Source: Planctomycetota bacterium (GTDB lineage: Bacteria; Planctomycetota; B15-G4; JADJEK01). Taken from it: 64,000 bases of DNA. Below the pieces are notes generated by a model. It saw only the letters and a program-made list of their open reading frames with translations, made no database searches and was not told the origin of the DNA. This document shows positions 33,425-49,606 of this stretch, piece after piece; the stretch's first letter is position 1, and each line of letters starts with the position of its first letter. The DNA is taken from positions 1-64,000 of the forward strand of contig JBGAIQ010000002.1 in the NCBI GenBank assembly GCA_044225365.1, read 5' to 3'. Position numbers and translations under genes: made by a program.

Positions 33425-34723
33425 GTGATGTCGATGGAGTGTCCGAGTCTGGATCCGCGCCTCGAACTCCTGGTAGCGCGGGAGGTCGAAGCCGGTAACA
33501 AGGTCGCAGCCCGAGGCGAGGCGTACGACGGCCGCATGTCGGTCCGACTCGAGCGCCCGTTCCACGAGGAATACCGCGCGACCCTCGGCGAACCTGGGAT
33601 CCTCTACCGTCGCGACGTGAAGAGCGACGGACCCGCCCCGTATCGATATGACGAGGAGTATCTCGAGACCGCTTCCTGCTTCGTCAAGGCGCCCTCGCCG
33701 GACCGCGACGGCAGGAAGGAGCGGGTCGCGCGATCGAAGGGGATCCAGCTCGACTCGAAGAACTGGCTTCGGTCAGGTCCCCCGGATCGACATGAGCGAC
33801 TCGGAGCGATCGCGGACGCGATCGAGCGCGAACTGCGGCGCCTCGGCGTCTGGATGACGAGCCCACCCGCGAGAGTACCGGAGTTCAAGGCGGCATTCGG
33901 CGCGGACGTCCTGCCTTTCGTCCACTGGATCCAGCTCGTGATGGTGCCGCGAGTCAGGGAGATCGCGGCGACGCGCGCAGCGATCCCTGGGCGGGGCGTC
34001 GCGGCGTACGCCGTGCGAGAGTTCGACGGCCAGGACGAGTATCGCGGACTGGAGCAATTGCTCTACGCACTCGACGAGATCTGCACGCCGCAGGCGCGAC
34101 CGCAGATCCGCCTCATGGGTTGGCGCCAGATCGGAGCCGCCTTGCTCCTCTTCGCGATCGCGATCCCGCTCGCGCTGTTCGGCATTCAGTTCTCGACGCG
34201 CATGAACGACGAGATCGACCACCGTTTCCCGCCTCGGTTCATCCTATCCGCGCAACTCGAAGGCTTGGAGTCGAACGCCATCCGATGGGTGGAGCTGTTC
34301 GTGGAAGGCGTGGAGAAGAGTGAGGGCGCGATCGCGACGGAGTCGTGCACGCTGGTCACCGTCCGCAGCTCGACATTGCGGATCGGCGTGCGTCCGCTCG
34401 CGCTCTCCGCAGGCGAGCCGATCGATCCGCATCGCATCGCCGCGTGGCTCGGAGAATGGGGGGCGCCCATCGACGCCGCGTCGACGACCTCGGACGCGAA
34501 CAAGATCCGTGAGACGGCGGAGTCGTTCTTCGCCTCGAAGACGAAGTCCGAGCTGATGGCGAAGCGCGAGGTGAGCGGAACGCGCGTCGAGCCCGCGACG
34601 GAATGCACCGTGTTTCCGGGCCGCGCATCCGAGACGGTTCACAACCTCGTACTGCTCGCGACGCTGATCATCCTCCTCGTGCCGCTCCCCTTCGCCGCTC
34701 TCTGGGTCCGGCGCAGGCTGTGA
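33425..34723 (+). CDS. Membrane protein containing a YqcC-like (DUF446) domain
   Basis: Central ADAIERELRRLGVW...AFGADVLPFVHWIQLV..PRV matches the YqcC pattern; two transmembrane helices flank a ~150-aa loop. Confidence 0.65.
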   Translation: MMSMECPSLDPRLELLVAREVEAGNKVAARGEAYDGRMSVRLERPFHEEYRATLGEPGILYRRDVKSDGPAPYRYDEEYLETASCFVKAPSPDRDGRKERVARSKGIQLDSKNWLRSGPPDRHERLGAIADAIERELRRLGVWMTSPPARVPEFKAAFGADVLPFVHWIQLVMVPRVREIAATRAAIPGRGVAAYAVREFDGQDEYRGLEQLLYALDEICTPQARPQIRLMGWRQIGAALLLFAIAIPLALFGIQFSTRMNDEIDHRFPPRFILSAQLEGLESNAIRWVELFVEGVEKSEGAIATESCTLVTVRSSTLRIGVRPLALSAGEPIDPHRIAAWLGEWGAPIDAASTTSDANKIRETAESFFASKTKSELMAKREVSGTRVEPATECTVFPGRASETVHNLVLLATLIILLVPLPFAALWVRRRL

Positions 34724-34836: not shown

Positions 34837-34881
34837 CGAATAAAAATTCACGATAGCGCGCAGCGAAAGCATGATTATTCT
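34837..34881. promoter_or_regulatory. Two ARG boxes (ArgR operators)
   Basis: CGAATAAAAATTCA (34837-34850) and AGCATGATTATTCT (34868-34881) resemble the TG(A/C)ATwwwwATTCA consensus and lie directly upstream of argR. Confidence 0.8.
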
Positions 34882-34888
34882 TTCTCCG

Positions 34889-35332
34889 ATGAGTCGAACA
34901 CAGGACCGTCGACGCACGATCGCGGCGTTGCTCGCCGAGCGGGACATCCGCAGCCAGAAGGAGCTGCGGTCCGCGCTCGCGCGCCGTGGGCATCGAGCTT
35001 CGCAGCCCGTGTTGTCGCGCGATCTGCGCGCGATGAAGGTTGCGAAGAGCAACGGCATCTACCGCGTGTTCGATCAAGAGCGGGTCACTCCGCTCGAAGG
35101 TCTGAAGGCATTGCTGCGCGGAGTGGAGCCGGCGAACCACTTCGTCATCGTGTTCTGCGAGCCGGGCGCGGGTTCGGCCGTCGCGCGTGCGATCGACCAG
35201 TCGGAGACCGAGGGTCTCGTCGGCACGATCGCGGGCGACGATGCGGTGCTCGTTGCGTTGGACTCACCTTCGGCCGCGCGCGACGTGAGGCGTCGGGTCG
35301 GCGATCTCATCACTACGGCGGTTGGAGACTGA
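34889..35332 (+). CDS. argR: Arginine repressor
   Basis: IRSQKEL, ASQPVLSRDL, PGAGSAVARAID, GTIAGDD. Confidence 0.95.
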   Translation: MSRTQDRRRTIAALLAERDIRSQKELRSALARRGHRASQPVLSRDLRAMKVAKSNGIYRVFDQERVTPLEGLKALLRGVEPANHFVIVFCEPGAGSAVARAIDQSETEGLVGTIAGDDAVLVALDSPSAARDVRRRVGDLITTAVGD

Positions 35333-35333
35333 C

Positions 35334-36551
35334 ATGCGCGTGCTCCTTGGATACTCCGGTGGACTCGATACCTCGTTCCTCGTCGCGTGGCTCACGCGCG
35401 AGCAGAATGCGAGCGTGACGGCGCTCGCCGTGGATTGCGGCGGCTTCACCGTCGACGAGCGGAGCGAGATGGGAGAGCGCGCGATGGCGCTCGGCGCGAA
35501 GGAATTCCGCCTCGTCGACGCGCGCGCCGAGATGTTCGATCGCATGCTGCGATTCCTCGTCGCGGCGAACGTGAAGCGCGGCGGCGTCTACCCGCTCTGC
35601 GTCGGCGCCGAGCGTGGCTTGCAGGCCGAAGTCCTCGCCCGCGTCGCCCTCGAGGAAGGATTCGATGCGGTCGCCCACGGCTGCACCGCGGCGGGCAACG
35701 ACCAGGTGCGGTTCGAGGCAGCCCTTGGGACGATCGCGCCACAGCTCAAGGTCGTTGCACCGGTGCGCGACCTCGGTCTCGAGCGAGGGTTCGAACGCGA
35801 TTACCTGACGAAGGTCGGATTCCCACCGGCGGAATCGCGCGCCCGCTATTCCGTGAACCAGGGCCTGTGGGGTCTCACGATCGGCGGCGGCGAGATGGCG
35901 ACGAGCAGCGATCCTCTGCCCGAATCGGCGTGGGTCTGGACGAAGGGCGCGAACGAGCCGAATCGACTCGCGGCTTCTCTCGCGCTGAAGTTGTCGTTCC
36001 ACGACGGGATCCCCGTCGCCCTCGATGGCAAGGCCCTCGACAGCGTCACCCTCGTGGAGACGTTGAATCGGATCGGCGGCGAGTACGGCGTCGGCCGCGG
36101 CTACCACCTCGGCGACACCGTCCTCGGGATCAAGGGGCGCATCGCGTTCGAAGCGCCGGCCGCCGAAGTGATCCTGGCGGCGCACCGCGAACTCGAGAAG
36201 CTCGTGCTCACGGAGGAGCAGCGCTTCTGGAAGGACCATCTCGGCGAGGTGTACGGTCGGCGTCTGCATCAGGGCTTGTTCCACGACCCGTTCCAGCGCG
36301 ATCTCGAAGCGTTCTTCCTGTCGAGTCAATCGCGGGTGACGGGTGATGTGGTCGTGCGTCTCGCGCACGGCAAGGCGATCGTCGAGGGTACGACCTCGCC
36401 GTTCTCGCTGATGGCCGCGTCGGACGCCCGCTACGGCGAGCGTGCGGCCAAGGAGTCGGATCCGCGATCGGCCGTCGGTCTCGCGAGGTTGCTCGCGGAG
36501 CCGGGTCGATTGCATCGCCGGGCCGGGATGGCGAAGGGAGCCTCGCAATGA
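35334..36551 (+). CDS. argG: Argininosuccinate synthase (Xanthomonas/Bacteroidota-like type)
   Basis: YSGGLDTS, YPLCVGAER, HGCTAAGNDQVRF, YSVNQGLWG, GIKGRIAFEAP. Confidence 0.96.
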   Translation: MRVLLGYSGGLDTSFLVAWLTREQNASVTALAVDCGGFTVDERSEMGERAMALGAKEFRLVDARAEMFDRMLRFLVAANVKRGGVYPLCVGAERGLQAEVLARVALEEGFDAVAHGCTAAGNDQVRFEAALGTIAPQLKVVAPVRDLGLERGFERDYLTKVGFPPAESRARYSVNQGLWGLTIGGGEMATSSDPLPESAWVWTKGANEPNRLAASLALKLSFHDGIPVALDGKALDSVTLVETLNRIGGEYGVGRGYHLGDTVLGIKGRIAFEAPAAEVILAAHRELEKLVLTEEQRFWKDHLGEVYGRRLHQGLFHDPFQRDLEAFFLSSQSRVTGDVVVRLAHGKAIVEGTTSPFSLMAASDARYGERAAKESDPRSAVGLARLLAEPGRLHRRAGMAKGASQ

Positions 36552-37612
36552 GAAGGGTCGAGATCGACAAGATCGGGTCGGTGACGCTGCGTCTCCTCCT
36601 CGAGAAGAACGCGGTTCTCGGCGACGACATCCCCGCCGTCGAAGGCACGGTCGTCGCGGGCCGCGTGAAGAACGCGAAGACGACCTACAACACGCTCGAG
36701 GACGTCCACGGCCGCATGGTGACGCTCTACCCGGGCGACATCATCGCGGGCGCGCTCGGCCATCGCGACGCGCTCTATGGCTACTCCGGTCGCATTCCGT
36801 TGCACGTGCGACCGGGCGACGAACTGAACATCCTCAATCTCGGCGGTGTGATCGGTGAAGGCGCGACGGCAACGCCCGGCATCGGCGAGCCGTTTCGCAT
36901 CGAGGTCCTCGGCGCCGTGCTCGAGTTCCCGTACGTGGGGACGCGCGTCGGCGTCCCCGCCAACGTAGCGCGCGGAGCGCTTCCGCCGCTCGACTTGCCG
37001 CCGACCGGCGAGATGCCGCCCGTGATCGCTCTCGTCGGTACGTGCATGGACGCGGGCAAGACGACGGCGGCGAGCGTCATCATCGGTGAACTGGCGCGGG
37101 CGGGCAAACGCGTCGCCGCAGGCAAGCTCACCGGTGTGTCGCTGCGCAAGGACGTCCTTTCGATGAAGGACTGCGGCGCCGAACCCGCGCTGTTGTTCAC
37201 CGATTTCGGCATCGTGACGACGAGCGACACGACGGCGGCCGCCACCGGCAAATCGCTCCTCGCGCACCTCGTCGAATCGGAGCCCGACATCATCGTCCTC
37301 GAACTTGGCGACGGCCTGCTCGGCACGTATGGCGTGCGTGCCCTTCTCGAGGACATCGCGTTCCGCTCGTCGCTGACCGCGGTCGCCCTCTGCGCTCAGG
37401 ACCCGGTCGGCGCGTGGGGCGGTCAGCAGATCCTGCGCGATCGCTACGGTCTCGAGGTGGCGGTGGTGTGCGGCCGCGTGACCGACACTCCGACGGGACT
37501 TCGATTCTGTCGCGAGAAGCTCGAGGTCTCGGCCTGGAACGCGTTGCATGACGGGCCGCAACTCGTCGGCGCGCTCGAAGCGGCGATCGCCCGTAAGGCG
37601 GCGAATCGATGA
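36548..37612 (+). CDS. DUF1611/DgcN-like P-loop protein; candidate alternative N-acylglutamate synthase
   Basis: VGTCMDAGKTT P-loop, GKLTG, FTDFG, ELGDGLLG. ATGA overlaps with both argG and argC. Function is inferred from context. Confidence 0.7.
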   Translation: MRRVEIDKIGSVTLRLLLEKNAVLGDDIPAVEGTVVAGRVKNAKTTYNTLEDVHGRMVTLYPGDIIAGALGHRDALYGYSGRIPLHVRPGDELNILNLGGVIGEGATATPGIGEPFRIEVLGAVLEFPYVGTRVGVPANVARGALPPLDLPPTGEMPPVIALVGTCMDAGKTTAASVIIGELARAGKRVAAGKLTGVSLRKDVLSMKDCGAEPALLFTDFGIVTTSDTTAAATGKSLLAHLVESEPDIIVLELGDGLLGTYGVRALLEDIAFRSSLTAVALCAQDPVGAWGGQQILRDRYGLEVAVVCGRVTDTPTGLRFCREKLEVSAWNALHDGPQLVGALEAAIARKAANR

Positions 37613-38703
37613 CGAACGAAGACCCGCGCGGCGCCTCGGTCCCGCTCGTGCTGTTCGGCGCGAGCGGATTGCTCGCAGGCGAACTGCTTCGCCTGCTCGA
37701 GAATCATCCGTCGTTGCGTCTCGCCGTCGCCAGCACGCGCGAGGGCGGCAGTCTCGCCGATGCGCAGCCGCATCTCTCTTTCGCTCCTGTATCGATTCCG
37801 ATCGAGGCGGCGATGGAGCAGTGCGTCGCACTCGCGGCGGAGGGTCGCGTGGCGATCGCGTTCGCACTTCCGCACGGCGAATCGGCGACGTTGTGGAAGA
37901 GTCTGCGATCTCGTCTCGGTTCGAACGCGACGAACGCGGTCGTCGTCGATCTCGGTGCCGATTACCGCATTTCGGACCTTTCGAAGTACTCGAAGGTCTA
38001 CGGCGCGCCGCATCCCGACGCCGCCGAAGTCGCGAACTTCGTCTACGGCCTTCCCGAGTTCCACCGCGCGGCATTGCGCGAGTCCACACGCGCTGCGGCG
38101 GGCGGCTGTTTCGCGACGGCGATGCAGCTCGCGATCGTTCCCGCGTTCGCTTCGGGTCTCGCCGATTCGTCGCGCCCGATCCTCGTGAGCGGGATCACCG
38201 GATCCTCGGGTTCGGGAAACAAGCCCGCGCCGAACACGCATCACCCGCATCGTGCGGGAAACCTCTGGGCCTACTCGCTCACCGGGCATCGTCACGAAGC
38301 AGAGCTCGAACAGGCGCTCGCGAGCGCCCCGATCGACGGCGTACCGTCGATCCACTTCGTCCCGCATTCGGGACCCTTCGTGCGGGGTATCCACCTCACG
38401 GCGTTCGTGGCATTGCGCGCAGGGGCGACGGGAGCCACGGCTCGCGACGCATACCGCGCGCGCTTCGCGAACGAGCCCTTCGTGACCGTGCTCGAGAAGG
38501 GCACGCCCGACCTGCGTCGAATCGTGGGTTCGAATCGCGCGTGCCTCGCGCTCGAATCGCGCGGCGACGTGCTCACGGTCTGCCTCACGCTCGACAACAT
38601 CACCAAGGGCGGGGCGGGTCAGGCGCTGCAGTGTCTCAATCTCATGCTCGGCGTCGAAGAGACGGCCGGGTTGCCGCGAACCGGTCTGGGAGTCTCGGGA
38701 TGA
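37609..38703 (+). CDS. argC: N-acetyl(acyl)-gamma-glutamyl-phosphate reductase
   Basis: GASG, ALPHG, DLGADYR, YGLPE, GCFATA, GSSGSG, HRH..E, RGI, DNITKGGAGQA. Confidence 0.95.
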   Translation: MTNEDPRGASVPLVLFGASGLLAGELLRLLENHPSLRLAVASTREGGSLADAQPHLSFAPVSIPIEAAMEQCVALAAEGRVAIAFALPHGESATLWKSLRSRLGSNATNAVVVDLGADYRISDLSKYSKVYGAPHPDAAEVANFVYGLPEFHRAALRESTRAAAGGCFATAMQLAIVPAFASGLADSSRPILVSGITGSSGSGNKPAPNTHHPHRAGNLWAYSLTGHRHEAELEQALASAPIDGVPSIHFVPHSGPFVRGIHLTAFVALRAGATGATARDAYRARFANEPFVTVLEKGTPDLRRIVGSNRACLALESRGDVLTVCLTLDNITKGGAGQALQCLNLMLGVEETAGLPRTGLGVSG

Positions 38704-39857
38704 GTCTTGCTGAATGGAATGCGTATTCGCGTCTGCCTCTCGATGTCGTTCGAGCCGAGGGATCCGAGCTGATCCTGCGCGACGGCCGTCGCGTCCTCGA
38801 TCTCTACGGAGGGCACTGCGTCCTCTCTCTCGGCGCCGGCAATTCGCTGCTCGCCGACACGCTGGCCGCGCAGTGGAAGGATCTCGGGTTCGTGACGAAT
38901 CTGCTCGATCACGCCCCGCGTCATCACTTCCTCGCCGCATTCGAGAAGAACCTGCCCGCAGGCGACTGGCGCGTGTTCTGTTCGAACAGCGGGGCCGAGG
39001 CCAACGAGAACGCGCTGAAGTGCGCGCTCTCGGCGACGGGTCGTGAGCGCGTCGTCGCGTTCTCCGGCGCCTTCCACGGACGTACCGCGGCCGCGAACGC
39101 CGTGACCGACACCACGAAGAAGGCCACGCCGCGAACGCCGTTCGACGTCGTGCGCATTCCGTGGGGCGATATCGAGAAGTCGCGCGCAGCGATCGACTCC
39201 ACGGTCGCCGCGGTGATCCTGGAGCCGATTCAATCGCTCGCGGGCGTCGTCGATCCTCCCGAAGGTTTCTTGCAGGCTCTCCGGCAAGCGTGCGACGCCG
39301 CCGGCGCCGCGCTCGTCTTCGACGAGGTCCAGACCGGCAATGGGCGGCTAGGCACGCCGTGGGCGAGCCAGTACTTCCACGTGACTCCGGATCTGTTCAC
39401 GACGGCGAAGGGCGCCGCGGGCGGCATCCCGATCGGGCTCACCGTCGCGAAGACGGCATGGGCCGACAAGGTTCCCGGCGCGCTCTTCGGCTCGACGTTC
39501 GGCGGCGGCCCGATGCCGCTCGCGCTCGCGACGATCGTCTCCGAAGCGATCGGCACCGAGGGTTTCCTCGCCAACGTCCAGGCCGCGTCGCGTGCGTTCG
39601 CGGCGGCGGGGTCGCATTATCCGGTGAAGCGAGTTCGCGGCGCGGGACTGCTCCTCGGCCTCGAACTCGAAGCGGGTTTCGAGGCGAAGAAGATCCGCGA
39701 TCTCCTGCTCGCGCACGACGTCCTCGTCGGCACCTGCGACGACCCGAAGGTCCTGCGACTCTGCCCCTCGCTGACGATCGCTCCCTCGGAAGCGCGACGA
39801 CTGCGTCACGCGCTCGAAGCCGTCGCGGCGACGATCGGAACGAGCGCCGCGCGATGA
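38700..39857 (+). CDS. argD: Acetylornithine/succinylornithine aminotransferase
   Basis: NSGAEANENALK, AFHGRT, EPIQ, FDEVQTG, AKG, GSTFGG, VRGAGL; ATGA overlap with argC. Confidence 0.92.
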   Translation: MSLAEWNAYSRLPLDVVRAEGSELILRDGRRVLDLYGGHCVLSLGAGNSLLADTLAAQWKDLGFVTNLLDHAPRHHFLAAFEKNLPAGDWRVFCSNSGAEANENALKCALSATGRERVVAFSGAFHGRTAAANAVTDTTKKATPRTPFDVVRIPWGDIEKSRAAIDSTVAAVILEPIQSLAGVVDPPEGFLQALRQACDAAGAALVFDEVQTGNGRLGTPWASQYFHVTPDLFTTAKGAAGGIPIGLTVAKTAWADKVPGALFGSTFGGGPMPLALATIVSEAIGTEGFLANVQAASRAFAAAGSHYPVKRVRGAGLLLGLELEAGFEAKKIRDLLLAHDVLVGTCDDPKVLRLCPSLTIAPSEARRLRHALEAVAATIGTSAAR

Positions 39858-40945
39858 ACGGACTCTACGACCTCGCCGAACTCGATCCGCTCCTCGTCGA
39901 TCAACTCGCGGCACGCGCTCTCGCATTGCACCGCGGAGAGTTGCCGAGACGGTTCCCCGGCCGCTCGCTCGGCCTGCTCTTCTTCGATCCGTCCTTGCGC
40001 ACGCAGGCGTCGTTCCAGCGCGCCGCGGGCCTCCTCGATCTTCATCTCGTGCACCTCTCCGGAACGATCTGGGGACTCGAGACCGAGGAGGGCGCGGTCA
40101 TGGACAGCGACAAAGCGGAGCACGTGAAGGAAGCCGCGCGAGTGCTCGGACGCTACGTCGACGTGCTCGGCGTGCGGGCGTTCGCGAAGGGCAAGGACCG
40201 CGCGAAGGACCTCGCCGATCCGCTGCTTCGGGGATTTTCGAAGTACGCGGGAGTGCCCGTGATCAATCTCGAGAGCGCGCGGTTCCATCCGTGCCAGGCG
40301 CTCGCGGATCGCGTCACCCTCGATCAGTTCTCGATCCCCGTGCGATCGAAGTTCGTGCTCACGTGGGCTTGGCATCCGAAGGCGCTCCCGGTCGCCGTTC
40401 CGCAATCGACGTTGCTCATGGCGGCGCAGCGTGGAATGGACGTCGTGGTCCTGCGTCCCGAGGGATACGACCTGGAAGAGGACGTCGTCGCGCACGCCAC
40501 GCGTCTCGCGCGCGAGCGAGGCGGCCGTGTCGAGATCACGTCCGACCGGTCGGCGGTCGCGGGCGCGACGGCCATCTACGCGAAGTCGTGGGGCAGCCTG
40601 CTCGATTACGGCGATCCCGCTGCCGAGGCCGCGCGGCGGGCGAATCTGCGGCATTGGCGCGTCGAAGCCGGGACCTTCGCGACTGCGAAGGACGCCGTGT
40701 TCATGCATTGCCTGCCGGTGCGACGCAACGTCGTCGTGACGGACGAAGTGATCGATTCCGAGCGCAGCGTCGTGATCGAGCAGGCCGAGAATCGGCTGTG
40801 GGCGCAGACGGCGATCCTCGAGTCGATCCTCGGTGCGACCGCACCGCGCCGCGCATTCCGTTCCAGTATTCGCGCCCGGGAAGCCGGGAGTTCCAACGCC
40901 GGTCGAGTCGGCCGCGAGTTCGGTATCGAGGAGGGTTCGTCGTGA
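39854..40945 (+). CDS. argF: N-acylornithine transcarbamylase (ArgF', AOTCase/SOTCase type)
   Basis: PSLRT, HPCQ, LTWAWHPKALP, KSW, HCLPVRRN, AENR are diagnostic of the acetyl/succinyl-ornithine enzymes rather than classic OTCase (STRT, HCLP). Confidence 0.93.
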   Translation: MNGLYDLAELDPLLVDQLAARALALHRGELPRRFPGRSLGLLFFDPSLRTQASFQRAAGLLDLHLVHLSGTIWGLETEEGAVMDSDKAEHVKEAARVLGRYVDVLGVRAFAKGKDRAKDLADPLLRGFSKYAGVPVINLESARFHPCQALADRVTLDQFSIPVRSKFVLTWAWHPKALPVAVPQSTLLMAAQRGMDVVVLRPEGYDLEEDVVAHATRLARERGGRVEITSDRSAVAGATAIYAKSWGSLLDYGDPAAEAARRANLRHWRVEAGTFATAKDAVFMHCLPVRRNVVVTDEVIDSERSVVIEQAENRLWAQTAILESILGATAPRRAFRSSIRAREAGSSNAGRVGREFGIEEGSS

Positions 40946-41904
40946 AAGATCTGATTCGCGCCATTCCATACATCCGTATGCATCGGGATCGGGTGATCGT
41001 GATCAAGGCGGGCGGAGGCACGCTCCAGAAGGCCGCGCTCCAGCGTCAGTTCGCGCGCCAGGTCGCAGCGATCCACGCGCTCGGCGCGAAAGTGGTTGTC
41101 GTTCATGGCGGTGGTCCGCAGATCGACAAGGTGCAGCGCATGCTCGGCGAGGAGCCGCAGATGGTGGACGGGCGACGCATCACGTCGGAGACTGCGTTGC
41201 GCGCGCTCAAGATGTCGACGGCGGGCGAACTGAACGCCGACCTCGCCGCCGCCCTCCTCGAACAGGGCACGCCCGCGATCGGCATCACGGCGGGAAGCTG
41301 CGGTGCGCTCATCGCGCGTCGGCGCGGCCCGACGAAGACGAGCCAGGGCATCGTCGATTTCGGCCAGGTCGGAGACATCGCAACGGGTCTCGGGGATCCG
41401 ACCGCGATCGCGGCGCTGATCGCGGTGGGTCACGTGCCGGTGATCGCTCCGATCGCAGGCGACGGCGCGGGCGGGTATCTCAACGTCAACGCGGATCTCG
41501 CGGCGGCATCACTCGCGACGACGCTCAAGGCTTCGAAGCTCGTCTTCGTGACGGGAGTTCCCGGCATCTTGCGCGCTGCGCTCGATCCGGCGTCTCTCGT
41601 CTCGGCCTTGAGCCTCGACGAACTCGACGAACTCGACGCGACGGGCGTTTATTCGGGCGGCATGAAGGTGAAGGCGCAGGCGATCCGCAATGCGCTGCAC
41701 GGCGGCGTCGAACGCGTCCACGTCGTCTCCGGCCACGATCCCGAAGCCCTGCTCGCCGAGCTCTACACGACGCACGGAAGCGGCACGCTCGTCACCCGCG
41801 AGCCCGAACGTGCGCCCGAGGATGCGGCTGCGAGCACCCCGCCCGCGGCCAGCGTGACGCAGAAGAGCCAGGACAACGGGCTCTCCGCCGCTGCGATGGG
41901 CTGA
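40942..41904 (+). CDS. argB: Acetylglutamate (acylglutamate) kinase
   Basis: AIPYI, VIKAGG, VVHGGGPQI, GRRIT, DFGQVG, NVNAD, GGMKVK; GTGA overlap and GGAGG RBS. Confidence 0.95.
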   Translation: MKDLIRAIPYIRMHRDRVIVIKAGGGTLQKAALQRQFARQVAAIHALGAKVVVVHGGGPQIDKVQRMLGEEPQMVDGRRITSETALRALKMSTAGELNADLAAALLEQGTPAIGITAGSCGALIARRRGPTKTSQGIVDFGQVGDIATGLGDPTAIAALIAVGHVPVIAPIAGDGAGGYLNVNADLAAASLATTLKASKLVFVTGVPGILRAALDPASLVSALSLDELDELDATGVYSGGMKVKAQAIRNALHGGVERVHVVSGHDPEALLAELYTTHGSGTLVTREPERAPEDAAASTPPAASVTQKSQDNGLSAAAMG

Positions 41905-41906
41905 CG

Positions 41907-42986
41907 ATGGAGCCCGAGGCACTGCTCTCAAGGATGGTGGCGACGCCGAGTCCGTCGGGCGACGAGGGCGCGCTCGCGGACTTCGTCATCGCGTTCGCAG
42001 GCGAGACCGGGCTGTCCACGCAGCGCATCGGCAATTCGGTCGTGGCGCGCATCGGAAGCGTGGGCGCCAACGCGCCGCGCCTGTGGTTGCTCTCGCATCT
42101 CGATACGGTGCCCGTCGGCAATGGCTGGTCCCACGATCCCCTGAAGGGTGAGTGGGAAGGCGACCGGCTGTACGGGCGCGGGGCGAACGACGCCAAGGTC
42201 TGTGGCGCGTCGATGCTCTCCGCGGCGGCGGCGCTCGTGCCCGAATTCTCGAGCGGTCGTATTCGTGGCGTGCTCGAAGTGGTGCTGACCGCGTGCGAGG
42301 AGACGACGAACGCCGGGATGGGCGAGGTGCTCGCCGCTCTCGGCCCGCCGGACGCGTGCATCTGCGGCGAGCCGACGAGCCTCGAAGTCGTCTGCGCGCA
42401 GGGCGGTCTCTCGGTGCTCGCCGCGAAATGGCGCGGGATCTCGTGCCACGCAGCGCATGCTGCGACCGTCGACAACGTGAACGCACTCTTGGTCGCGGCG
42501 CGCGATCTCGCCGAACTGCCGAGCGTGCTCCACGTCGGTCACGATCATCCGCTGCTCGGTCGCACTTCGGTGGTGACGACGCAGCTCAAGGCGGGCGAAC
42601 GACACAACGTGATCCCGGATCTCGCCGAGGCGGTGTTCGACGCGCGCGTCGCGCCTGGAACGAGTGCGGACGAGATCCGCGCCGAACTCGAGCGGCGGCT
42701 GCCGAACGCCGAGGTGACGATCCGCTCGAAACGACTCACAGCGGTGGAGACGGCGATCGATCATCCCGTCGTTCGCGCGGCGCTCCTCGCCGCCAAGAAG
42801 CCGCGCGCGATTGCATCACGGACGCTCTCGGACATGGCGTTCCTGATGGGCGTCCCGGCCGTGAAGTGCGGGCCGGGCGACACGTCGCGGTCGCACACTC
42901 CCAACGAATACGTGACGCGCGCCGAGCTCGACGCCGGCGTCCAGTTCTATCGCGCCGCCGTTCCTTCGATCCTCGCAGTCCTGTAG
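41907..42986 (+). CDS. argE: M20 family N-acyl-citrulline/ornithine deacylase
   Basis: SHLDTVP, LYGRGANDAK, CEE, GEPT, HAAH, NVIP, SHTPNE; position in the arg operon. Confidence 0.88.
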   Translation: MEPEALLSRMVATPSPSGDEGALADFVIAFAGETGLSTQRIGNSVVARIGSVGANAPRLWLLSHLDTVPVGNGWSHDPLKGEWEGDRLYGRGANDAKVCGASMLSAAAALVPEFSSGRIRGVLEVVLTACEETTNAGMGEVLAALGPPDACICGEPTSLEVVCAQGGLSVLAAKWRGISCHAAHAATVDNVNALLVAARDLAELPSVLHVGHDHPLLGRTSVVTTQLKAGERHNVIPDLAEAVFDARVAPGTSADEIRAELERRLPNAEVTIRSKRLTAVETAIDHPVVRAALLAAKKPRAIASRTLSDMAFLMGVPAVKCGPGDTSRSHTPNEYVTRAELDAGVQFYRAAVPSILAVL

Positions 42987-42998
42987 GGAAGCCAAGTG

Positions 42999-44219
42999 AT
43001 GAGCGATTCCGAATCCGCGAACGAGAACAGTGCGCACGCGCGACCCGTGTGGGACCGTGGCGACGCGATCGATGCCGGCATGCTCGCCTTCACCGTCGGC
43101 GACGACTGGCTGATGGACCGAAGGCTCGTGAAGCACGACATCCGTGGATCGCTCGCGCACGTGAAGGGCCTGGAGCGCGTGGGACTCGTCAGCGCGGACG
43201 ACGCCGCCGCGATCACGCAGGGACTGAACGACCTGCTCGACCTTCATCACAAGGGTGAGTTCGACGTCACGGCGCGGGACGAGGACGTCCATTCGGCCGT
43301 CGAGAACGCACTCGTAGTGCGAATCGGCGATCCGGGCAAACGCCTCCACACCGCACGCAGTCGCAACGAGCAGGTGGCCGTCGACGTTCGGCTCTTCCTG
43401 CGCGAGGCGATCGGTGACGTGCGTGCGGCGCTCGATCGCGCGGTTCAGGCCTGTCTCGATCGCGCGCTCGCCTACGGCGATCTGCCCCTTCCGGGCTACA
43501 CGCACCTTCGCCGCGCGATGCCCTCGACGCTCGGGGTCTGGCTGCTCGCGCACGCCACGGCATTGCGCGCCGACATGTCGGAACTCGACGTGGCGGCGAA
43601 GCGGATCAGCAAGTGCCCGCTCGGGAGCGGGGCCGGATACGGCCTGCCGGTCGAACTCGATCGCGAGTTCGTTGCGAAGGAGCTCGGGTTCGACGCGCCC
43701 GAGGAGCCCGTGACGCTGGTGCAGCACTCGCGTGGGCGGGCCGAGCTCTCGTACCTGAACGCACTCGAGGCGATCGCACTCGACGTGATCAAGCTCGCGA
43801 CCGATCTCTGGCTCTTCACGAGCGAGGAGTTCTCCTTCGCCAAGTTGCCGGTCGCTCTCACGACCGGATCGTCGCTCATGCCGCAGAAGCGGAATCCCGA
43901 CCTCATCGAGCTGCTGCGCGCGAATGCGCGACAGGTGCTCGCCGAGCGCGACGCCGTCCGCGAGGTCGTGCGCGATTTGCCCTCCGGCTATCACCGCGAC
44001 TTCCAGTTGTTGAAGGGGCCGCTCTTTCGCGCGCACGATCGAATGCTCGCGATGCTGCCGATGGTCGACAAGCTCGTCCGCGGGATCGAGTTCGACGCCG
44101 GCGCACTGCGTGCGGCTTGCGCCGACCCAAAGCTCAATGCGACCGCACGCGCGCTCGAGAAAGCCAAGCAGGGCGTCCCGTTCCGCGATGCCTATCGCGA
44201 GGAGAGTCGCGGCGGCTGA
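42999..44219 (+). CDS. argH: Argininosuccinate lyase (short form)
   Basis: EDVHSAVE, HTARSRNEQV, PGYTHL, PLGSGAGYG, TGSSLMPQKRNPD, GYHRDFQ, GVPFRDAY. Confidence 0.96.
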   Translation: MSDSESANENSAHARPVWDRGDAIDAGMLAFTVGDDWLMDRRLVKHDIRGSLAHVKGLERVGLVSADDAAAITQGLNDLLDLHHKGEFDVTARDEDVHSAVENALVVRIGDPGKRLHTARSRNEQVAVDVRLFLREAIGDVRAALDRAVQACLDRALAYGDLPLPGYTHLRRAMPSTLGVWLLAHATALRADMSELDVAAKRISKCPLGSGAGYGLPVELDREFVAKELGFDAPEEPVTLVQHSRGRAELSYLNALEAIALDVIKLATDLWLFTSEEFSFAKLPVALTTGSSLMPQKRNPDLIELLRANARQVLAERDAVREVVRDLPSGYHRDFQLLKGPLFRAHDRMLAMLPMVDKLVRGIEFDAGALRAACADPKLNATARALEKAKQGVPFRDAYREESRGG

Positions 44220-44244: not shown

Positions 44245-46836
44245 TCAATGCAGCAGTTGGATCCCGTTCGTCGCGGCGTAGCCGAGCGTCGCGCCCGGGT
44301 CGACGACGAAGCCCTGCATTGCGAGGTTCAGTCCGACCGCCGACGCGGGATAGACGGTCGGCAGCGAGAACGAACCGTTGCCGGCGCCGCCGCCCGCGAG
44401 CGGGAGCAAGAGGCTCTGCGGCAACACGGGGAAGAGCAGCAGACGACATCCGCCGCCGATCGGCAGGTTCGCGGGCGATGTTCCGAGCAGGACGACCATC
44501 GTCGCGCCGCCGAGTCCGAACTTCGCGCCGAGCTTGACCGTTTCGCCCGGATCGGGACACCCCGTGAACGTGAGGACCGGTGAGAAGCCGCCCGAGCCTG
44601 GGCAGCCCGAACCATAGGCCGCGGCCGCTGAAACGCACTTGTCCTGGATGAGGATCGCGAAGTCCTCCACGAATCCGAGCGAATGGCCGACGACGGCATC
44701 GGTTCGTCCGTCACCGTTCAGGTCCGCGAGATCGGAGCCGTAGAGGATCCCATTGCTGCTCGGGTTGGTGTCCCACCCGAAGTTCACGAGCGCGTTGCTT
44801 TCCGCGGGATCGAAGCCGTTCGCCGTGCCGGGAACGATCGTCCCGCCGACCGCGACGTCCGTGAAGCCGTCGGCGTCGAGATCGCCGAAGTGGACTGCGG
44901 CGGGCTGAATGACGAAGCTCCCGATTCCCGAATTCTCCGTGACGACGGAGAAACCGTTCGCGCCGTAGCTCAACTGGAAGATCCGCAGATTGCTGAGGAG
45001 GCAGAGATCCATGTCGCCGTCGTTGTCGAAGTCGCGCGCCGTACTGAATTGGAGGTCGGGCGCGAGGACGATCGGGGTGACGATCGAACTCGGCCCCGGC
45101 GAGAAGGTACCGGCGCCATTTCCGAGATACGGGTACAGGAGCACATGGGTCGATTGTGCGACACTGTTCGTCGAGACGACGAAGTCGATGAAGCCGTCGA
45201 GATCGAAGTCCGCGGCTGCGAGTGAGCCAAGACCGGTCGACTGCACGACGGCGGTGGACGTCGCGTAGGGATTCGGGCCCGGAGAAGCCGTGCACAGATT
45301 GACGTCGAAAGCCGTCAACGCGAACAGATCGTCGTCGCCGTCGTTGTCGATGTCGGCGGGCACCGGGGGAGCCTTCAAGAACAAGAAGTTCGTGGTGGTC
45401 GGAGGCGGTACGAAAGCTCCGTTCCCCACACCCAGGTGCGTAGCGATCGAACCGAGGAAGGACTGAGTACCCGCGACGACGAGATCGACGTTGCCGTCGT
45501 TGTTCGAGTTCACCGGGACGAGCCAAGGGAACAATTCGGACGGTGAGAGGACGGTGGGCCCGAACGAACCGTCGCCGGCGCCCTTTTGGAACCGGATCGA
45601 TCCGCCGTCGTTCACGAGGAGGTCGACCTTCGCATCTCCGTCGACATCGTGCAGGAGCGGCGCCGAGTTCACCGTGGTGGGAACGCCTGTCGTGGGCGGC
45701 AGTACGAAAGTGCCCGGGCTCTGGCTGAAGAGTCCGTAGACGCCGAGCGCACCGACGACGACGAGATCGATCAGGCCGTTGCCATCGAGATGCATCGCCG
45801 CCGCGGTCCACATCCCTCCGAGGTCGACGTTCGATGCGATCCCGAAGAAACCATGCTTGTTGCCGTAGCGAAGCTGCGGCGGCGCCCCCAAGATCAAGGT
45901 GAGGAGATCCGGGTTCTGATCGGAGTTGAAGTCGGCGACGACGCACTGGGTTGGACTGTTCGACGTGTTGATGTAGTTGATCGACTGACTCGAGGTGAAG
46001 CCGTTCACGGTGGCGAGCAGGATCCTCGTCGTTCCCGGGCTGCCGTTGTCCTCGTTGACCACGAGATCGCTTCGGCCATCGTGATCGAGGTCCGCCACCA
46101 GAATGAACTCGCCGGGTGTGGCGAAGGCCGGCAGCGGCGACGCAAAGACTCCGCCGCCCAGACCACGCATCGTGAAGACACCATGCGCCAGTCCGAACGC
46201 GGAGATCGCGACGTCTGCCGTTCCATCGCCATCGAAGTCGCCGACTCCGAGAACCGCATCGCCGATCGGCGCGGCCTGCGGCGGGGAAGCCACGAGGCCG
46301 TTCGCATTCAAGAGCACCTGGATCGAGGCTTGGAGTCCGACGAGGTCGTAGGTGTAGACCAGGATGTCGGCCTTGCCGTCCTGGTCGAAGTCGCCGCTCA
46401 CGAGACGCAACGGATCGATGCTGGGATACGAGGTCGGAGCGCCGAACGTCCCGTCCCCGAGATTCGCATACACGAGTACCGCGGAGGCGACGCCGTGAGC
46501 CGACGCCGCGATGTCGAGGTCGCCGTCGTTGTCGAAGTCACCGATCGCATCTTCGATCGGGCCGACGCCGATTCCGCCGGCGGACGGAGTGAAGCTACCG
46601 AATCCTCGATTCAGGAGGACCTGTCCGCGCGAGAGCAGATCGGGGATTCCGTCGCCGTCGAAATCCCCCGCGAGTGTGTTGCTCGCCTGACTCGGCCCTT
46701 CGAAGAACGAGAACTGCGGAGTCGATTCGAATCGAAACTTGGGAGGGGCGGCATGGGAATCCACGGCAGGAAGGAGCCCGACAAGAGCCATCGCGGACGA
46801 CCAAGGAGAAGCATGCTTCAACGTCATCCGCCCCAT
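44245..46836 (-). CDS. Secreted FG-GAP repeat protein (paralogue 1) with conserved C-terminal domain
   Basis: Signal peptide; about 12 DxDxDGxxD repeats; C-terminus YGSGCPGSGG...QGFVVDP...TNGIQLLH. Confidence 0.88.
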   Translation of the reverse strand: MGRMTLKHASPWSSAMALVGLLPAVDSHAAPPKFRFESTPQFSFFEGPSQASNTLAGDFDGDGIPDLLSRGQVLLNRGFGSFTPSAGGIGVGPIEDAIGDFDNDGDLDIAASAHGVASAVLVYANLGDGTFGAPTSYPSIDPLRLVSGDFDQDGKADILVYTYDLVGLQASIQVLLNANGLVASPPQAAPIGDAVLGVGDFDGDGTADVAISAFGLAHGVFTMRGLGGGVFASPLPAFATPGEFILVADLDHDGRSDLVVNEDNGSPGTTRILLATVNGFTSSQSINYINTSNSPTQCVVADFNSDQNPDLLTLILGAPPQLRYGNKHGFFGIASNVDLGGMWTAAAMHLDGNGLIDLVVVGALGVYGLFSQSPGTFVLPPTTGVPTTVNSAPLLHDVDGDAKVDLLVNDGGSIRFQKGAGDGSFGPTVLSPSELFPWLVPVNSNNDGNVDLVVAGTQSFLGSIATHLGVGNGAFVPPPTTTNFLFLKAPPVPADIDNDGDDDLFALTAFDVNLCTASPGPNPYATSTAVVQSTGLGSLAAADFDLDGFIDFVVSTNSVAQSTHVLLYPYLGNGAGTFSPGPSSIVTPIVLAPDLQFSTARDFDNDGDMDLCLLSNLRIFQLSYGANGFSVVTENSGIGSFVIQPAAVHFGDLDADGFTDVAVGGTIVPGTANGFDPAESNALVNFGWDTNPSSNGILYGSDLADLNGDGRTDAVVGHSLGFVEDFAILIQDKCVSAAAAYGSGCPGSGGFSPVLTFTGCPDPGETVKLGAKFGLGGATMVVLLGTSPANLPIGGGCRLLLFPVLPQSLLLPLAGGGAGNGSFSLPTVYPASAVGLNLAMQGFVVDPGATLGYAATNGIQLLH

Positions 46837-46878
46837 CGACCTCGACCAAATCGGAGAAGACCCACCACGAGTTCGCAA

Positions 46879-49473
46879 TCAGTGAAGGAGCTGGATCCCG
46901 TTCGTCGCGGCGTAGCCGAGTGTCGCGCCCGGGTCGACGACGAAGCCCTGCATCGCGAGGTTCAGTCCGACCGCCGACGCGGGATAGACGGTCGGCAGCG
47001 AGAACGAGCCGTTGCCGGCGCCGCCGCCCGCGAGCGGGAGCAAGAGGCTCTGCGGCAACACGGGGAAGAGCAGCAGACGACATCCGCCGCCGAGTGGCAG
47101 GTTGGCGGGTGACGTTCCGAGCAGGACGACCATCGTCGCGCCGCCGAGGCCGAACTTCGCGCCGAGTTGGACCGCGGCGCCCGGATCGGGGCAGCCGGTA
47201 AAGGTGAGTGCCGGTACGAATCCTCCCGACCCTGGACAGCCCGAGCCGTACGCGGTCGCGGTCGACACGCAGGTGTCCTGGAGGAGGATCGCGAAATCCT
47301 GTTGATTGCTGAGCGGCCGTCCCACGACGGCGTCGGTGCGCCCGTCGCCGTTCAGGTCCGCGAGGTCGGAGCCGTAGAACAGTCCGTTGCCGCTTGGATT
47401 GGTGTCCGAACCGAAGTTGACGAGCACGTTGCTCGCAGACGGATCGAACCCATTCGCGGTTCCGGGAACGATCGTCCCGCCGATGACGAGGTCCGTCAAA
47501 CCGTCGGTATCGAGATCTCCGAACTCCACCGAAACCGGCGGCGTGAGAAAGCTGCCGATCCCGGGATTCTGCGTAATGACGGAGAATCCACCGGTCCCGT
47601 AGCTCAACTGGAAGATGGTGAGGTTGCTGAGGACGCAGAGGTCCATGTCGCCATCGCCGTCGAAGTCGCGCGCCGTACTGAACTGGAGGTCGGGCGCCAG
47701 GACGAGCGGAGTGACGACCGAACTCGGCCCCTGCGTGAACGCGCCGGTGCCATTTCCGAAGAAAGGAACCGCGTTCACGTTGGGCGATACGGAGAAGCTG
47801 TCGGTGGTGGCGACGAAGTCGAGGAATCCATCCAGATCGAAGTCGGCCGGCGCGATCGAGCCGTAGGAAGTCGAGGGCGAGAGCGTGACCGAGTTCGCGT
47901 AGGGATTCGGGCCCGGAGCTGCTGTGAAGAGAGCGAGGAAGGGACCCGCCAATCCGAGCAGGTCGTCGTCACCGTCGTCGTCGACGTCGGCGGCGACCGG
48001 AGCCGTCTTGAACGCCAGGGTACTCGTGCTCGTCGGGGCGGCAGCGAAGCTTCCACTTCCGTTGCCGAGGAGCGAAGTGACCGTTCCGATGAAGAGGTTG
48101 TTCCCCACCGCGACGAGATCGAGGTTCGCATCGTTGTTCGAATGGACGGGCACGAGCCAGGGACGCGCCGCTGCGGCCGAGAGCACCGCCGGGCCAAACG
48201 TGCCATTACCCACGCCCTTGCGGAATTGAATCGATCCGTTGGCGTTCACGAGGAAGTCCGCCTTGGAGTCGCCATCGACATCGCGGAGCAATGGGCGCGA
48301 ACTGACGTTCGGACTCAGCCCCGTCGTCGGCGGCAGAACGAACGTACCCGGAGTCTTCCCGCGGAGGCCGTACACGCCGAGCGGACCCTGCACGACGAGA
48401 TCGATGAGGGCATCGCCATCGAGGTTCATCGCGATAGCGGTCCACATCCCTCCGAGGTCGACGTTCGTGGCTCCGCCGAAGAAACCATGTTTGTTACCGA
48501 GTCGAAGTTGCGATGGCGCACCCAGGATCAGAGTGAGGAGATCCACGTTCTGATCGGAATCGAAATCGGCGAGCACGCACTGCGTCGGACTGTTGGACGT
48601 GTTGATGTAGTTGATCGACTGGCTCGAGTTGAAACCGTTCACGGTCGCGAGCAGGATCCTCGTCGTGCCCGAGTTTCCGTTGTCGTCGTTGATCACGAGA
48701 TCGCTGAGGCCATCGTGGTCGAGATCCGCGACCAGGATGAATTCGCCCGGTACGGCGAACGCCGGCAACGCCTGCGCGAAGACTCCGCCGCCCAGGCCGC
48801 GCATCGTGAAGACTCCATGCGCCTGTCCGAATGCGGAGATCGCGACGTCGCTCGTTCCATCACCATCGAAGTCGCCCACTCCGAGCACCGCGTCGCCGAT
48901 CGGCGCGGCCTGCGGCGGGGAAGCCACGAGGCCGTTCGCATTCAAGAGCACCTGGACGGACGCGCTGAGTCCGACGAGGTCGTAGTCGTAGACCAAGATG
49001 TCGGCCTTGCCGTCCTGATCGAAGTCGCCGCTGACGAGATGCATTGGATCGATGCTGGGATACGAGGTCGGAGCGCCAAACGTTCCGTTCCCGAGATTCG
49101 CATACACGAGGACTGCGGACGCGACGCCGTGAGCCGAGGCCGCGATGTCCAGGTCGCCATCGTTGTCGAAGTCCCCGATCGCGTCTTCGATCGGACCGAC
49201 GCCGATTCCACCTGCGGACGGAGAGAAACTTCCGAATCCTCGATTCAGGAGGACCTGCCCGCGTGTCAGCAGATCTTGGATCCCGTCGCCGTCGAAGTCT
49301 CCCGCGAGGGTATTGCTCGCCGGACTCGGCCCTTGGAAGAACGAAAACTGAGGAGTGGACTCGAATCGAAACCTGGGAGGGGCGGCTTCCGAGCTCGTCG
49401 CCGGGAGTAGCGCGGCAAGAACCAGCCCAACCAGCCACGGTGAAACACACGCGACGGAATTCGACTTCACCAC
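46879..49473 (-). CDS. Secreted FG-GAP repeat protein (paralogue 2) with conserved C-terminal domain
   Basis: GTG 49473 with GGAGG RBS; collinear with paralogue 1 over its whole length. Confidence 0.88.
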   Translation of the reverse strand: MVKSNSVACVSPWLVGLVLAALLPATSSEAAPPRFRFESTPQFSFFQGPSPASNTLAGDFDGDGIQDLLTRGQVLLNRGFGSFSPSAGGIGVGPIEDAIGDFDNDGDLDIAASAHGVASAVLVYANLGNGTFGAPTSYPSIDPMHLVSGDFDQDGKADILVYDYDLVGLSASVQVLLNANGLVASPPQAAPIGDAVLGVGDFDGDGTSDVAISAFGQAHGVFTMRGLGGGVFAQALPAFAVPGEFILVADLDHDGLSDLVINDDNGNSGTTRILLATVNGFNSSQSINYINTSNSPTQCVLADFDSDQNVDLLTLILGAPSQLRLGNKHGFFGGATNVDLGGMWTAIAMNLDGDALIDLVVQGPLGVYGLRGKTPGTFVLPPTTGLSPNVSSRPLLRDVDGDSKADFLVNANGSIQFRKGVGNGTFGPAVLSAAAARPWLVPVHSNNDANLDLVAVGNNLFIGTVTSLLGNGSGSFAAAPTSTSTLAFKTAPVAADVDDDGDDDLLGLAGPFLALFTAAPGPNPYANSVTLSPSTSYGSIAPADFDLDGFLDFVATTDSFSVSPNVNAVPFFGNGTGAFTQGPSSVVTPLVLAPDLQFSTARDFDGDGDMDLCVLSNLTIFQLSYGTGGFSVITQNPGIGSFLTPPVSVEFGDLDTDGLTDLVIGGTIVPGTANGFDPSASNVLVNFGSDTNPSGNGLFYGSDLADLNGDGRTDAVVGRPLSNQQDFAILLQDTCVSTATAYGSGCPGSGGFVPALTFTGCPDPGAAVQLGAKFGLGGATMVVLLGTSPANLPLGGGCRLLLFPVLPQSLLLPLAGGGAGNGSFSLPTVYPASAVGLNLAMQGFVVDPGATLGYAATNGIQLLH

Positions 49474-49554
49474 GATTCGGCCTCCGATCGAAGCGACTCC
49501 CCGCCGCTTCGATTTCAACCCGACACATGCCGCTCGGGGGTCGATCATAGCACA

Positions 49555-49587
49555 CGGATCTCCGACGACGGGGTCGTCGGAGATCCG
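49555..49587 (-). terminator. Perfect 15-bp hairpin downstream of lon (terminator-like)
   Basis: CGGATCTCCGACGAC-ggg-GTCGTCGGAGATCCG, 20 bp after the lon stop; no strong U-tract. Confidence 0.55.
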
Positions 49588-49606
49588 CGGGTCGTCATCG
49601 CGAGAT

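Follow-up and report, generated by a model that had tools for sequence, protein, structure and literature searches.

A BioD-like P-loop protein encoded between argG and argC in a planctomycete arginine operon is a candidate N-succinyl-L-glutamate synthase

The window analysed here, the first 64 kb of contig C30 (GenBank JBGAIQ010000002.1; G+C content about 65%) of a Planctomycetota genome assembled to 6.53 Mb in 103 contigs (GCA_044225365.1; completeness 94.29%, contamination 0.03%), carries an arginine biosynthesis operon with the gene order argR-argG-X-argC-argD-argF'-argB-argE-argH, its nine plus-strand genes packed within positions 34871-44219. The neighbours of X were identified with Pfam and NCBIfam models, which confirm the order that an earlier note had read from this DNA and its claim that the operon covers all steps from N-acylglutamate to arginine. 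X is coupled to both neighbours by ATGA overlaps (argG stop and X start at 36548-36551, X stop and argC start at 37609-37612) and contains the P-loop VGTCMDAGKTT at residues 163-173, both as described in that note. We estimate a probability of about 0.7 that X makes an N-blocked glutamate, the first committed step of arginine synthesis, with the succinyl form favoured as its product. The note had already proposed X as the missing glutamate N-acylation enzyme; gene order, the pattern of ArgJ and ArgA occurrence and elimination support that role, and the membership in the DUF1611/DgcN family on which it had been based is not supported.

X is assigned to the first step by elimination, because it is the only unassigned gene in an operon that covers every other step. 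As the earlier note had stated, ArgB carries no GNAT fusion: its AA_kinase domain (residues 18-263) stands alone, with no GNAT or other acyltransferase domain. The gap extends to the genome as a whole, where a search for argA, argJ and GNAT-type N-acetylglutamate synthases (NAGS) found neither ArgJ nor a classical ArgA, and none of the GNAT proteins reached a NAGS cut-off. The ArgJ model PF01960 has no match in the assembly and matches 10 of 14 control genomes. Full-length ArgA (TIGR01890) is likewise missing from the assembly, the sole match being the kinase part of ArgB, which spans model positions 2-280 and scores 128.3 bits against a cut-off of 202.85. Nineteen GNAT open reading frames (ORFs) were found with PF00583, none of them inside the operon, and all 19 fall below the cut-off of every NCBIfam NAGS model, a set that does not cover the BT3761/Cabys_1732 type (best scores 31.5 vs 180 for NF005921, 31 vs 154 for NF005840 and 28.9 vs 280 for NF049894). 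PF04768, the NAT domain, matches neither the assembly nor any of the 14 control genomes and so tells nothing about the gap.

The position of X within arginine gene clusters is highly conserved, a point that the earlier note had raised as a check on its proposal. We compared 80 related loci, one genome per species, obtained by a pattern scan from a closer alignment and therefore biased to relatives of at least 39% identity; the contexts of the most divergent family representatives (about 30% identity) lie outside this set. The loci come mostly from Planctomycetota metagenome-assembled genomes (MAGs), together with eight MAGs labelled 'Proteobacteria' (44-49% identity) and one alphaproteobacterial MAG (39%), and their gene content was determined by tblastn with the arg proteins of the window. 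X is matched in 79 of the 80. Where at least 1 kb of flanking sequence was available, argC lies immediately 3' of X in 75 of 76 loci (argB in the exception, L042) and argG immediately 5' in 67 of 69 (the exceptions being L042, with argR, and L080). At least one arg gene accompanies X in 78 of 79 loci, the exception being a 1.7-kb contig, and argE belongs to the operon in 55 of the 79. The proteobacterial loci are rearranged, with argR on the opposite strand followed by argD, argF', argB, argH, argG, X and argC, and no argE in the cluster; the argG-X-argC triplet is kept despite this rearrangement in seven 'Proteobacteria' loci (L073-L078, L081), and the X-argC pair in L080.

The occurrence of X across the phylum is complementary to that of ArgJ. 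Among 401 evenly drawn Planctomycetota genomes, which are related to one another so that the counts are not independent events, the X profile is matched at E<=1e-10 in 143, of which 137 belong to the orthologue class (at least 330 bits; about 330-455) and 6 hold the paralogue class only (about 210-233 bits). ArgJ was found in 168 of the 401. An X orthologue occurs alone in 135 genomes, ArgJ alone in 166, both in 2 and neither in 98; ArgA above cut-off is present in five, all of them ArgJ-positive and without X, and in none of the 137 genomes with an X orthologue. The two overlaps are G337, in which the ArgJ match is weak (E 5.4e-8), and G104, which is discussed below. Families f7 and f24 hold both solutions, in different genomes. 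Five close relatives lack X, and in four of these ArgC is missing too. The fifth, G307, belongs to the same order and is also without ArgJ; it carries a separate argC-argB-argD-argE cluster (L090; G307:C8:120498-124673), 28-35% identical to the window's genes, which looks like a different pathway variant, perhaps mediated by a carrier protein of the LysW/ArgW type.

The acyl group is indicated by the carbamoyltransferase of the operon. The window ArgF' aligns best to chains of the acetylornithine carbamoyltransferase of Xanthomonas campestris, the top match being the Ala-92 variant, and after correction of the chain numbering for a 20-residue tag its A88, P179 and V294 correspond to E92, N185 and K302 of that enzyme. 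Succinyl-specific enzymes are described as carrying A/S/P/V/Q, P and V/I/E where the acetyl enzyme has E92, N185 and K302 (PMC4581275, section 8), so that the A/P/V signature implies an operon that probably runs on N-succinylated intermediates. Such intermediates have a precedent in Bacteroidetes, for which a succinylornithine carbamoyltransferase and a desuccinylase have been reported (PMC7311316). In 50 ArgF' proteins encoded in X loci the signatures are APV (29), VPV (7), VPE (5), QPV (3) and QPI (2), with one each of PPV, APK, IPE, ANE and A??, and the first position is A, V, Q, P or I, with Glu in none of the 50. The earlier note had left the product as N-acetyl- or N-succinylglutamate; as the operon ArgF' does not carry the acetyl-type signature, the succinyl branch is favoured, and judging from these residues the product of X is most likely N-succinylglutamate. 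The genome also encodes a second copy of ArgF' (C75:10203-11210; L091:7204-8229), 71% identical to the operon copy and with the signature EPV, that is, with Glu at position 92. It has no arg genes nearby, its neighbours being AHSA1-like and YCII-like proteins, and its preferred acyl-ornithine may be a different one.

The family of X is large. Neither Pfam nor NCBIfam holds a model for it, and the weak matches of X, which are to MobB at E 0.003 and to a model for MobA/MobB at E 0.0025, are far below the cut-offs. A word-indexed search retrieved 1866 related proteins at E<=0.001 among 8000 candidates, and an exhaustive search of representatives at 50% identity retrieved 1360 at E<=0.001, of which 846 also pass E<=1e-10. 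Among the matches listed, homologues are called 'hypothetical protein' where they are named and are mostly from Planctomycetota; among those listed for the protein of proteobacterial locus L074, named homologues come from Holophaga, Acidobacteria, Gemmatimonadales and Gammaproteobacteria. Ten diverse representatives of the family gave sub-threshold P-loop matches only (CbiA, MobB, AAA_26 and, at 14-21 bits, DUF1611). Fusions of X were found as one-member clusters (X with ArgC, ArgG with X, and an ArgG-X-ArgD protein of 1430 residues) and in the representative search (X with an ArgB-like kinase, P0178, and with an ArgC-like part, P0166); since their make-up follows that of neighbouring genes which overlap, frameshifts or errors of gene calling may account for them, and they are given little weight. 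The nearest clusters in the ESM Atlas are automatically named 'DUF1611 domain-containing protein', with PF07755 on 11% of the members in the sole cluster that lists it, and this automatic naming explains how the DUF1611 label arose.

Paralogues of X occur in other settings. A divergent one, with 27% identity to X and a PF07755 score of 23.1 bits, is part of a conserved trio with a flavin-reductase-like protein and an M20 peptidase, in the order flavin-reductase-like protein, M20 peptidase, paralogue, in three Planctomycetota genomes without an X orthologue (G285, G079 and G094; loci L094:8118-11068, in G285, L110 and L111); two of the three (G079, and the family of G285 generally) use ArgJ. 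The trio hints that the wider X family cooperates with deacylases. A second class of paralogues (about 210-250 bits; G135, G187 and others) has an L,D-transpeptidase and a thioredoxin-like protein as neighbours, which give no clue to its role.

An AlphaFold2 model of X, built from a 24-sequence alignment with a mean confidence (pLDDT) of 89.3 and a global fold score (pTM) of 0.88, has two domains, an all-beta domain at residues 1-126 and an alpha/beta P-loop domain at residues 159-354. The N-terminal domain, searched alone with Foldseek, has no match in the PDB at E<=0.001 (best E 0.43, template-modelling (TM) score 0.22), and its family-invariant residues are G33, E51, G55, R56, D64, G71, R73, G81, G100, G103 and G122. 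In a Foldseek search of the PDB with the model of X, the first-ranking entry is the DUF1611 protein 2obn (E 6.2e-6, TM score 0.40); with E-values of 2e-5 to 1e-4, dethiobiotin synthetases, FtsY/SRP54 and HypB come next; DgcN (7xrj) ranks 22nd (E 1.4e-4, root-mean-square deviation (rmsd) 5.7 over 239 columns) and 2g0t 32nd. The Foldseek signal of the predicted structure is generic for the SIMIBI class. With phmmer and the single sequence of X as query, no PDB sequence matched at an E-value under 0.49. In a 48-sequence family alignment the Walker A motif reads G-[TS]-x-M-x-x-G-K-T, with G170 and K171 in 48 of 48 sequences and T172 in 47 (Ser in one); K193, which follows strand 2 within K-L-T-G, and E252, within E-L-G-D-G, are found in all 48, and D202 in 46 (Glu in two).

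The earlier note had placed X in the DUF1611 family, which includes DgcN, and had suggested a comparison with hidden Markov models of PF07755/DgcN. PF07755 matches X with 12.6 bits (E 0.27; cut-off 25) over profile positions 13-45 only, the P-loop, and hmmscan at E<=0.01 finds neither PF07755 nor PF17396 in it; among the ten diverse representatives the best PF07755 score is 20.8 bits, below the gathering score of 25. Pairwise hhalign comparisons between profiles for the X family (A2, 48 sequences), DUF1611 (A3, 14 sequences from the phylum) and BioD (A5, 16 from the phylum) gave 60.2% (E 8.6e-5, 257 columns) for X and DUF1611 versus 95.0% (E 3.7e-8, 172 columns) for X and BioD, and 95.8% (E 6.6e-9) for DUF1611 and BioD. 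Searched against PDB sequences, the A2 profile has as its top match BioD 3fgn (E 1.5e-4), with no DUF1611 chain at E<=10. Like X, DgcN-type proteins (7XRJ, 2OBN, 2G0T) have two domains, about 350 residues and a C-terminal BioD-like P-loop fold, and DgcN, a D-glutamate N-acetyltransferase, is reported to act on the amino group of glutamate (PMC12363236, PMC10845958; GapMind 2026 preprint). X differs from them in its all-beta N-terminal domain, which takes the place of the Rossmann-like DUF1611_N domain (PF17396), and in its motifs, which are G-T-C-M-x-x-G-K-T, K-L-T-G and E-L-G-D-G instead of G-x-D-C-x-x-G-K-[M/R], A-T-G-Q-T-G and E-G-Q-G. The last Walker A position of DUF1611 is M, R or T in 9, 4 and 1 of 14 sequences, whereas X has GKT, and a Lys stands in X, as in BioD, where DUF1611 keeps the invariant Thr of ATGQTG. 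Score, N-terminal domain, motifs and profile alignment do not support X as a member of DUF1611/DgcN, to which its likeness is a loose one; the sequences place X and DUF1611 as two separate branches of a BioD-like group, so that the acetyl-CoA (coenzyme A) chemistry of DgcN is not simply transferable to X. The two also differ in context: X lies between argG and argC with no racemase neighbour, whereas the genome's true DUF1611 gene, away from the arg operon at C63:97191-99396 (L092:7192-9397; PF07755 251-253 bits, PF17396 77 bits), is followed by an enolase-superfamily racemase (MR_MLE_N/C), the DgcN/DgcA-type arrangement of D-glutamate salvage.

By sequence comparison X resembles ATP-dependent dethiobiotin synthetase at least as closely as it does DgcN. 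In the hhalign alignment its K171, T172, K193, D202 and E252 correspond to the BioD invariants K16, T17, K38, D55 and E116, which we take to be the Mg-ATP and carbamate binders of E. coli dethiobiotin synthetase. X thus retains a complete site of the BioD type for nucleotide and Mg, which is missing from DgcN-type proteins, and this hints at dependence on ATP. X departs from BioD in having Met (43 of 48) at the invariant T12 and an extra N-terminal domain of about 150 residues, BioD being a single-domain protein of about 230; it has no match to TIGR00347 or PF13500 at E<=0.01 and reaches no BioD or AAA_26 cut-off. The genome's own bioD lies on contig C61. With BioD this close, homology to an acetyltransferase becomes a weaker argument, and an ATP-dependent reaction has to be considered as an alternative.

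What we infer from the observed gene order, phyletic pattern, fold class and motifs (reaction, acyl group and energy source) would combine into the following pathway. X would block the alpha-amino group of L-glutamate, most likely to give N-succinyl-L-glutamate; ArgB, ArgC and ArgD would convert this to N-succinylornithine, ArgF' would carbamoylate it, the M20 ArgE-like enzyme would strip the succinyl group to release citrulline, and ArgG and ArgH would complete arginine. X would stand in for the GNAT-type ArgA and the bifunctional ArgJ. The GNAT-type N-acylglutamate synthases (ArgA, short NAGS, the Cg3035 type and BT3761/Cabys_1732) have in common with X the reaction, as proposed, and a place at the start of the pathway; they have no relationship with it in sequence or fold, and X has no GNAT match. 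X could ligate free succinate with Mg-ATP by way of an acyl-phosphate, in the manner of dethiobiotin synthetase and the cobyrinate amidases, or it could transfer the group from succinyl-CoA, the kind of reaction reported for DgcN, a distant relative; the conservation of motifs leans slightly to nucleotide dependence. The boldest form of the proposal, in which X is a Mg-ATP-dependent BioD-like ligase with a new all-beta substrate domain that uses free succinate through an acyl-phosphate and needs no CoA, is tentative, and we hold the odds to be about two to one against it. If true, it would be a third, mechanistically new start to arginine biosynthesis, used by a third of the sampled Planctomycetota and by members of the Acidobacteriota, Gemmatimonadota and Gammaproteobacteria.

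The idea of such a role is already in print, as the earlier note had cautioned it might be. A 2015 review of NAGS lists the glutamate-succinylating enzyme as one whose gene was still to be found at that time (PMC4490483), and the GNAT protein BT3761, of the BT3761/Cabys_1732 type, was later proposed as the N-succinylglutamate synthase of Bacteroides (GapMind 2020, PMC7311316). A GapMind 2026 preprint predicts the role considered here for ACG33_RS14135 of Steroidobacter denitrificans, on the grounds that this hypothetical protein is virtually always in arg operons and never occurs with ArgA, that it has weak Foldseek similarity to DgcN 7XRJ (rmsd 5.6), and that the associated ArgF' proteins have A/P/S/V, with two Gln, at position 92. 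X shares each of these properties (arg clusters, absence of ArgA, similarity to 7XRJ and position-92 residues), and from the matching descriptions the two proteins very likely belong to the same family; no Steroidobacter name appears among the matches listed for the L074 protein. The proteobacterial X loci (L073-L081) lack argE in the cluster, as described for Steroidobacter. Steroidobacter is without ArgA and ArgE, whereas the planctomycete operon holds argE, which allows X, unlike its Steroidobacter counterpart, to be placed at the first step by elimination. The preprint argues from acetyltransferase homology, whereas X has the stronger profile match to BioD. The literature examined held no other proposal that links DUF1611 with arginine or names a succinylglutamate synthase, nothing relevant to arginine synthesis in Planctomycetes stood among the papers listed, and the supplement of the preprint may list planctomycete homologues. 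The role itself is therefore not new, and X is a further member of a predicted family. What the present analysis adds is an operon that contains argE, the complementarity with ArgJ over 401 genomes, the BioD-like site, an N-terminal domain without a Foldseek counterpart, and the paralogue trio with its M20 peptidase. With every other step, ArgE included, in the same operon, the window lends itself to a cleaner test than the published case does, and if the role is confirmed, an annotation gap would be closed that makes about a third of the sampled Planctomycetota (137 of 401) look like arginine auxotrophs. The most interesting part of the finding is the testable question of mechanism, ATP versus acyl-CoA, that the complete BioD-type site raises.

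Several points weigh against the proposed role. Here as in the preprint, which offers a prediction, it is drawn from comparative evidence, and the succinyl assignment rests on the signature rule for ArgF' and not on X itself. DgcN is the sole characterised acyltransferase of the fold class, and X is related to it only distantly (60% by hhalign; E 1.4e-4 and rmsd 5.7 by Foldseek). The genome is only 94% complete and holds 19 GNAT genes, and the DgcN/DgcA-like pair on C63 could in principle yield N-acetyl-L-glutamate from D-glutamate. The anti-correlation with ArgJ is expected for any gene of a linear-pathway operon, so that it supports and does not prove the assignment to step one. Finally, G104, a 12.3-Mb MAG, has an argR-X-argB cluster plus a separate argC-argB-argD-argJ cluster, which reflects either two arginine systems in one organism or a mixed bin. 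The G104 clusters are L093 (C165) and L136 (C146), in a MAG that is 87% complete with 3% contamination, and the bare argR-X-argB arrangement also occurs in L042.

Other readings of the same data concern the product and the kind of reaction. It is very unlikely that X performs the first step and yields N-acetyl-L-glutamate for an acetylated pathway. The best NCBIfam model for the operon ArgF' is named N-acetylornithine carbamoyltransferase (NF003384, 370.6 bits), in G104 X occurs together with a cluster that contains ArgJ, so that acetyl groups are implied for this genome, and the second ArgF' on C75 has Glu at the position-92 equivalent (EPV). Databases, however, have mis-named succinylornithine enzymes as acetylornithine enzymes, as related in an account of this pathway (GapMind 2020, PMC7311316), all three discriminating residues of the operon ArgF' are of the succinyl type, the first position is of that type in all 50 ArgF' encoded next to X homologues, and the preprint reports likewise for 70 ArgF' (GapMind 2026). 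We give equally little credence to a different ATP-dependent reaction, for example one that yields an N-carboxy- or N-carbamoyl-blocked glutamate, or one that is unrelated to the pathway and merely coregulated with arginine synthesis. Such a reaction would suit the closest profile match, dethiobiotin synthetase, and the retained K, T, K, D and E positions, and the M20 family also includes carbamoyl-amino-acid hydrolases. The replacement of the BioD invariant T12 by Met (43 of 48) and the specific succinylornithine signature of ArgF' speak against it, and no precedent was found in the literature examined.

Somewhat less improbable, if still unlikely, is an accessory function, in which X would be a nucleotide-binding protein that acts either on the M20 deacylase, as a SIMIBI-type factor for metal insertion or assembly, or on ArgB, as a regulator, and an unrecognised acyltransferase would be encoded elsewhere. 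HypB and the SRP/FtsY NTPases are found by Foldseek at E-values like those of DUF1611 and BioD, the weak Pfam matches of X are to MobB, the paralogue trio in G285, G079 and G094 joins a flavin reductase and an M20 peptidase, and the genome's 19 GNAT genes have undefined substrates. A partner of the deacylase is nevertheless hard to reconcile with seven proteobacterial loci in which X is kept between argG and argC with no argE in the cluster, or with the bare argR-X-argB cluster of L042 and G104; with an accessory role, no gene would be left for an essential step in the 135 genomes that have X only, and the invariant residues of the N-terminal domain together with the BioD-type K193 suggest a small-molecule active site.

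Table 1. Genes of the arginine operon and features of X in the window, with the evidence for each
Feature	Position	Strand	Length (residues)	Basis
argR, arginine repressor	34871..35332	+	153	PF01316 and PF02863, both above cut-offs
argG, argininosuccinate synthase	35334..36551	+	405	TIGR00032, 294.8 bits (cut-off 268.2)
X, candidate N-succinyl-L-glutamate synthase (ATG start)	36548..37612	+	354	arg context; complementarity with ArgJ/ArgA
X N-terminal all-beta domain, residues 1-150	36548..36997	+		AlphaFold2 model of the domain alone, pLDDT 92.4
X C-terminal BioD-like (SIMIBI) P-loop domain, residues 159-354	37022..37612	+		Foldseek, hhalign
Walker A, G164-T-C-M-D-A-G-K171-T172	37037..37063	+		48-sequence family alignment
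Stretch with K193, D202 and E252	37124..37303	+		aligned to BioD invariants K38, D55 and E116
argC	37609..38703	+		TIGR01850, 287.7 bits (cut-off 233.6)
argD, N-acylornithine aminotransferase (class-III)	38700..39857	+	385	PF00202, 249 bits
argF', knotted acyl-ornithine carbamoyltransferase, A88/P179/V294	39854..40945	+		NF003384, 370.6 bits (cut-off 288)
argB, N-acylglutamate kinase	40942..41904	+	320	TIGR00761, 185.3 bits (cut-off 151.3)
argE-like M20 deacylase, presumed N-acylcitrulline hydrolase	41907..42986	+	359	PF01546, PF07687
argH, argininosuccinate lyase, no fusion	42996..44219	+	407	TIGR00838, 303 bits (cut-off 279.5)

Two of the neighbouring proteins are assigned at a more general level. 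The best NCBIfam models for ArgD are acetylornithine/succinylornithine transaminases, each scoring below its own cut-off, and those for the argE-like protein are ArgE/DapE, also with scores below the cut-offs. Immediately 5' of argR lies a plus-strand ORF of 432 residues (33425-34723) with a hydrophobic segment near its C-terminus. Immediately beyond argH, on the minus strand, are two tandem paralogous ORFs of 877 and 923 residues (44245-46878 and 46879-49650), which contain many D-x-D-x-D-G repeat-like segments and have near-identical C-terminal halves.

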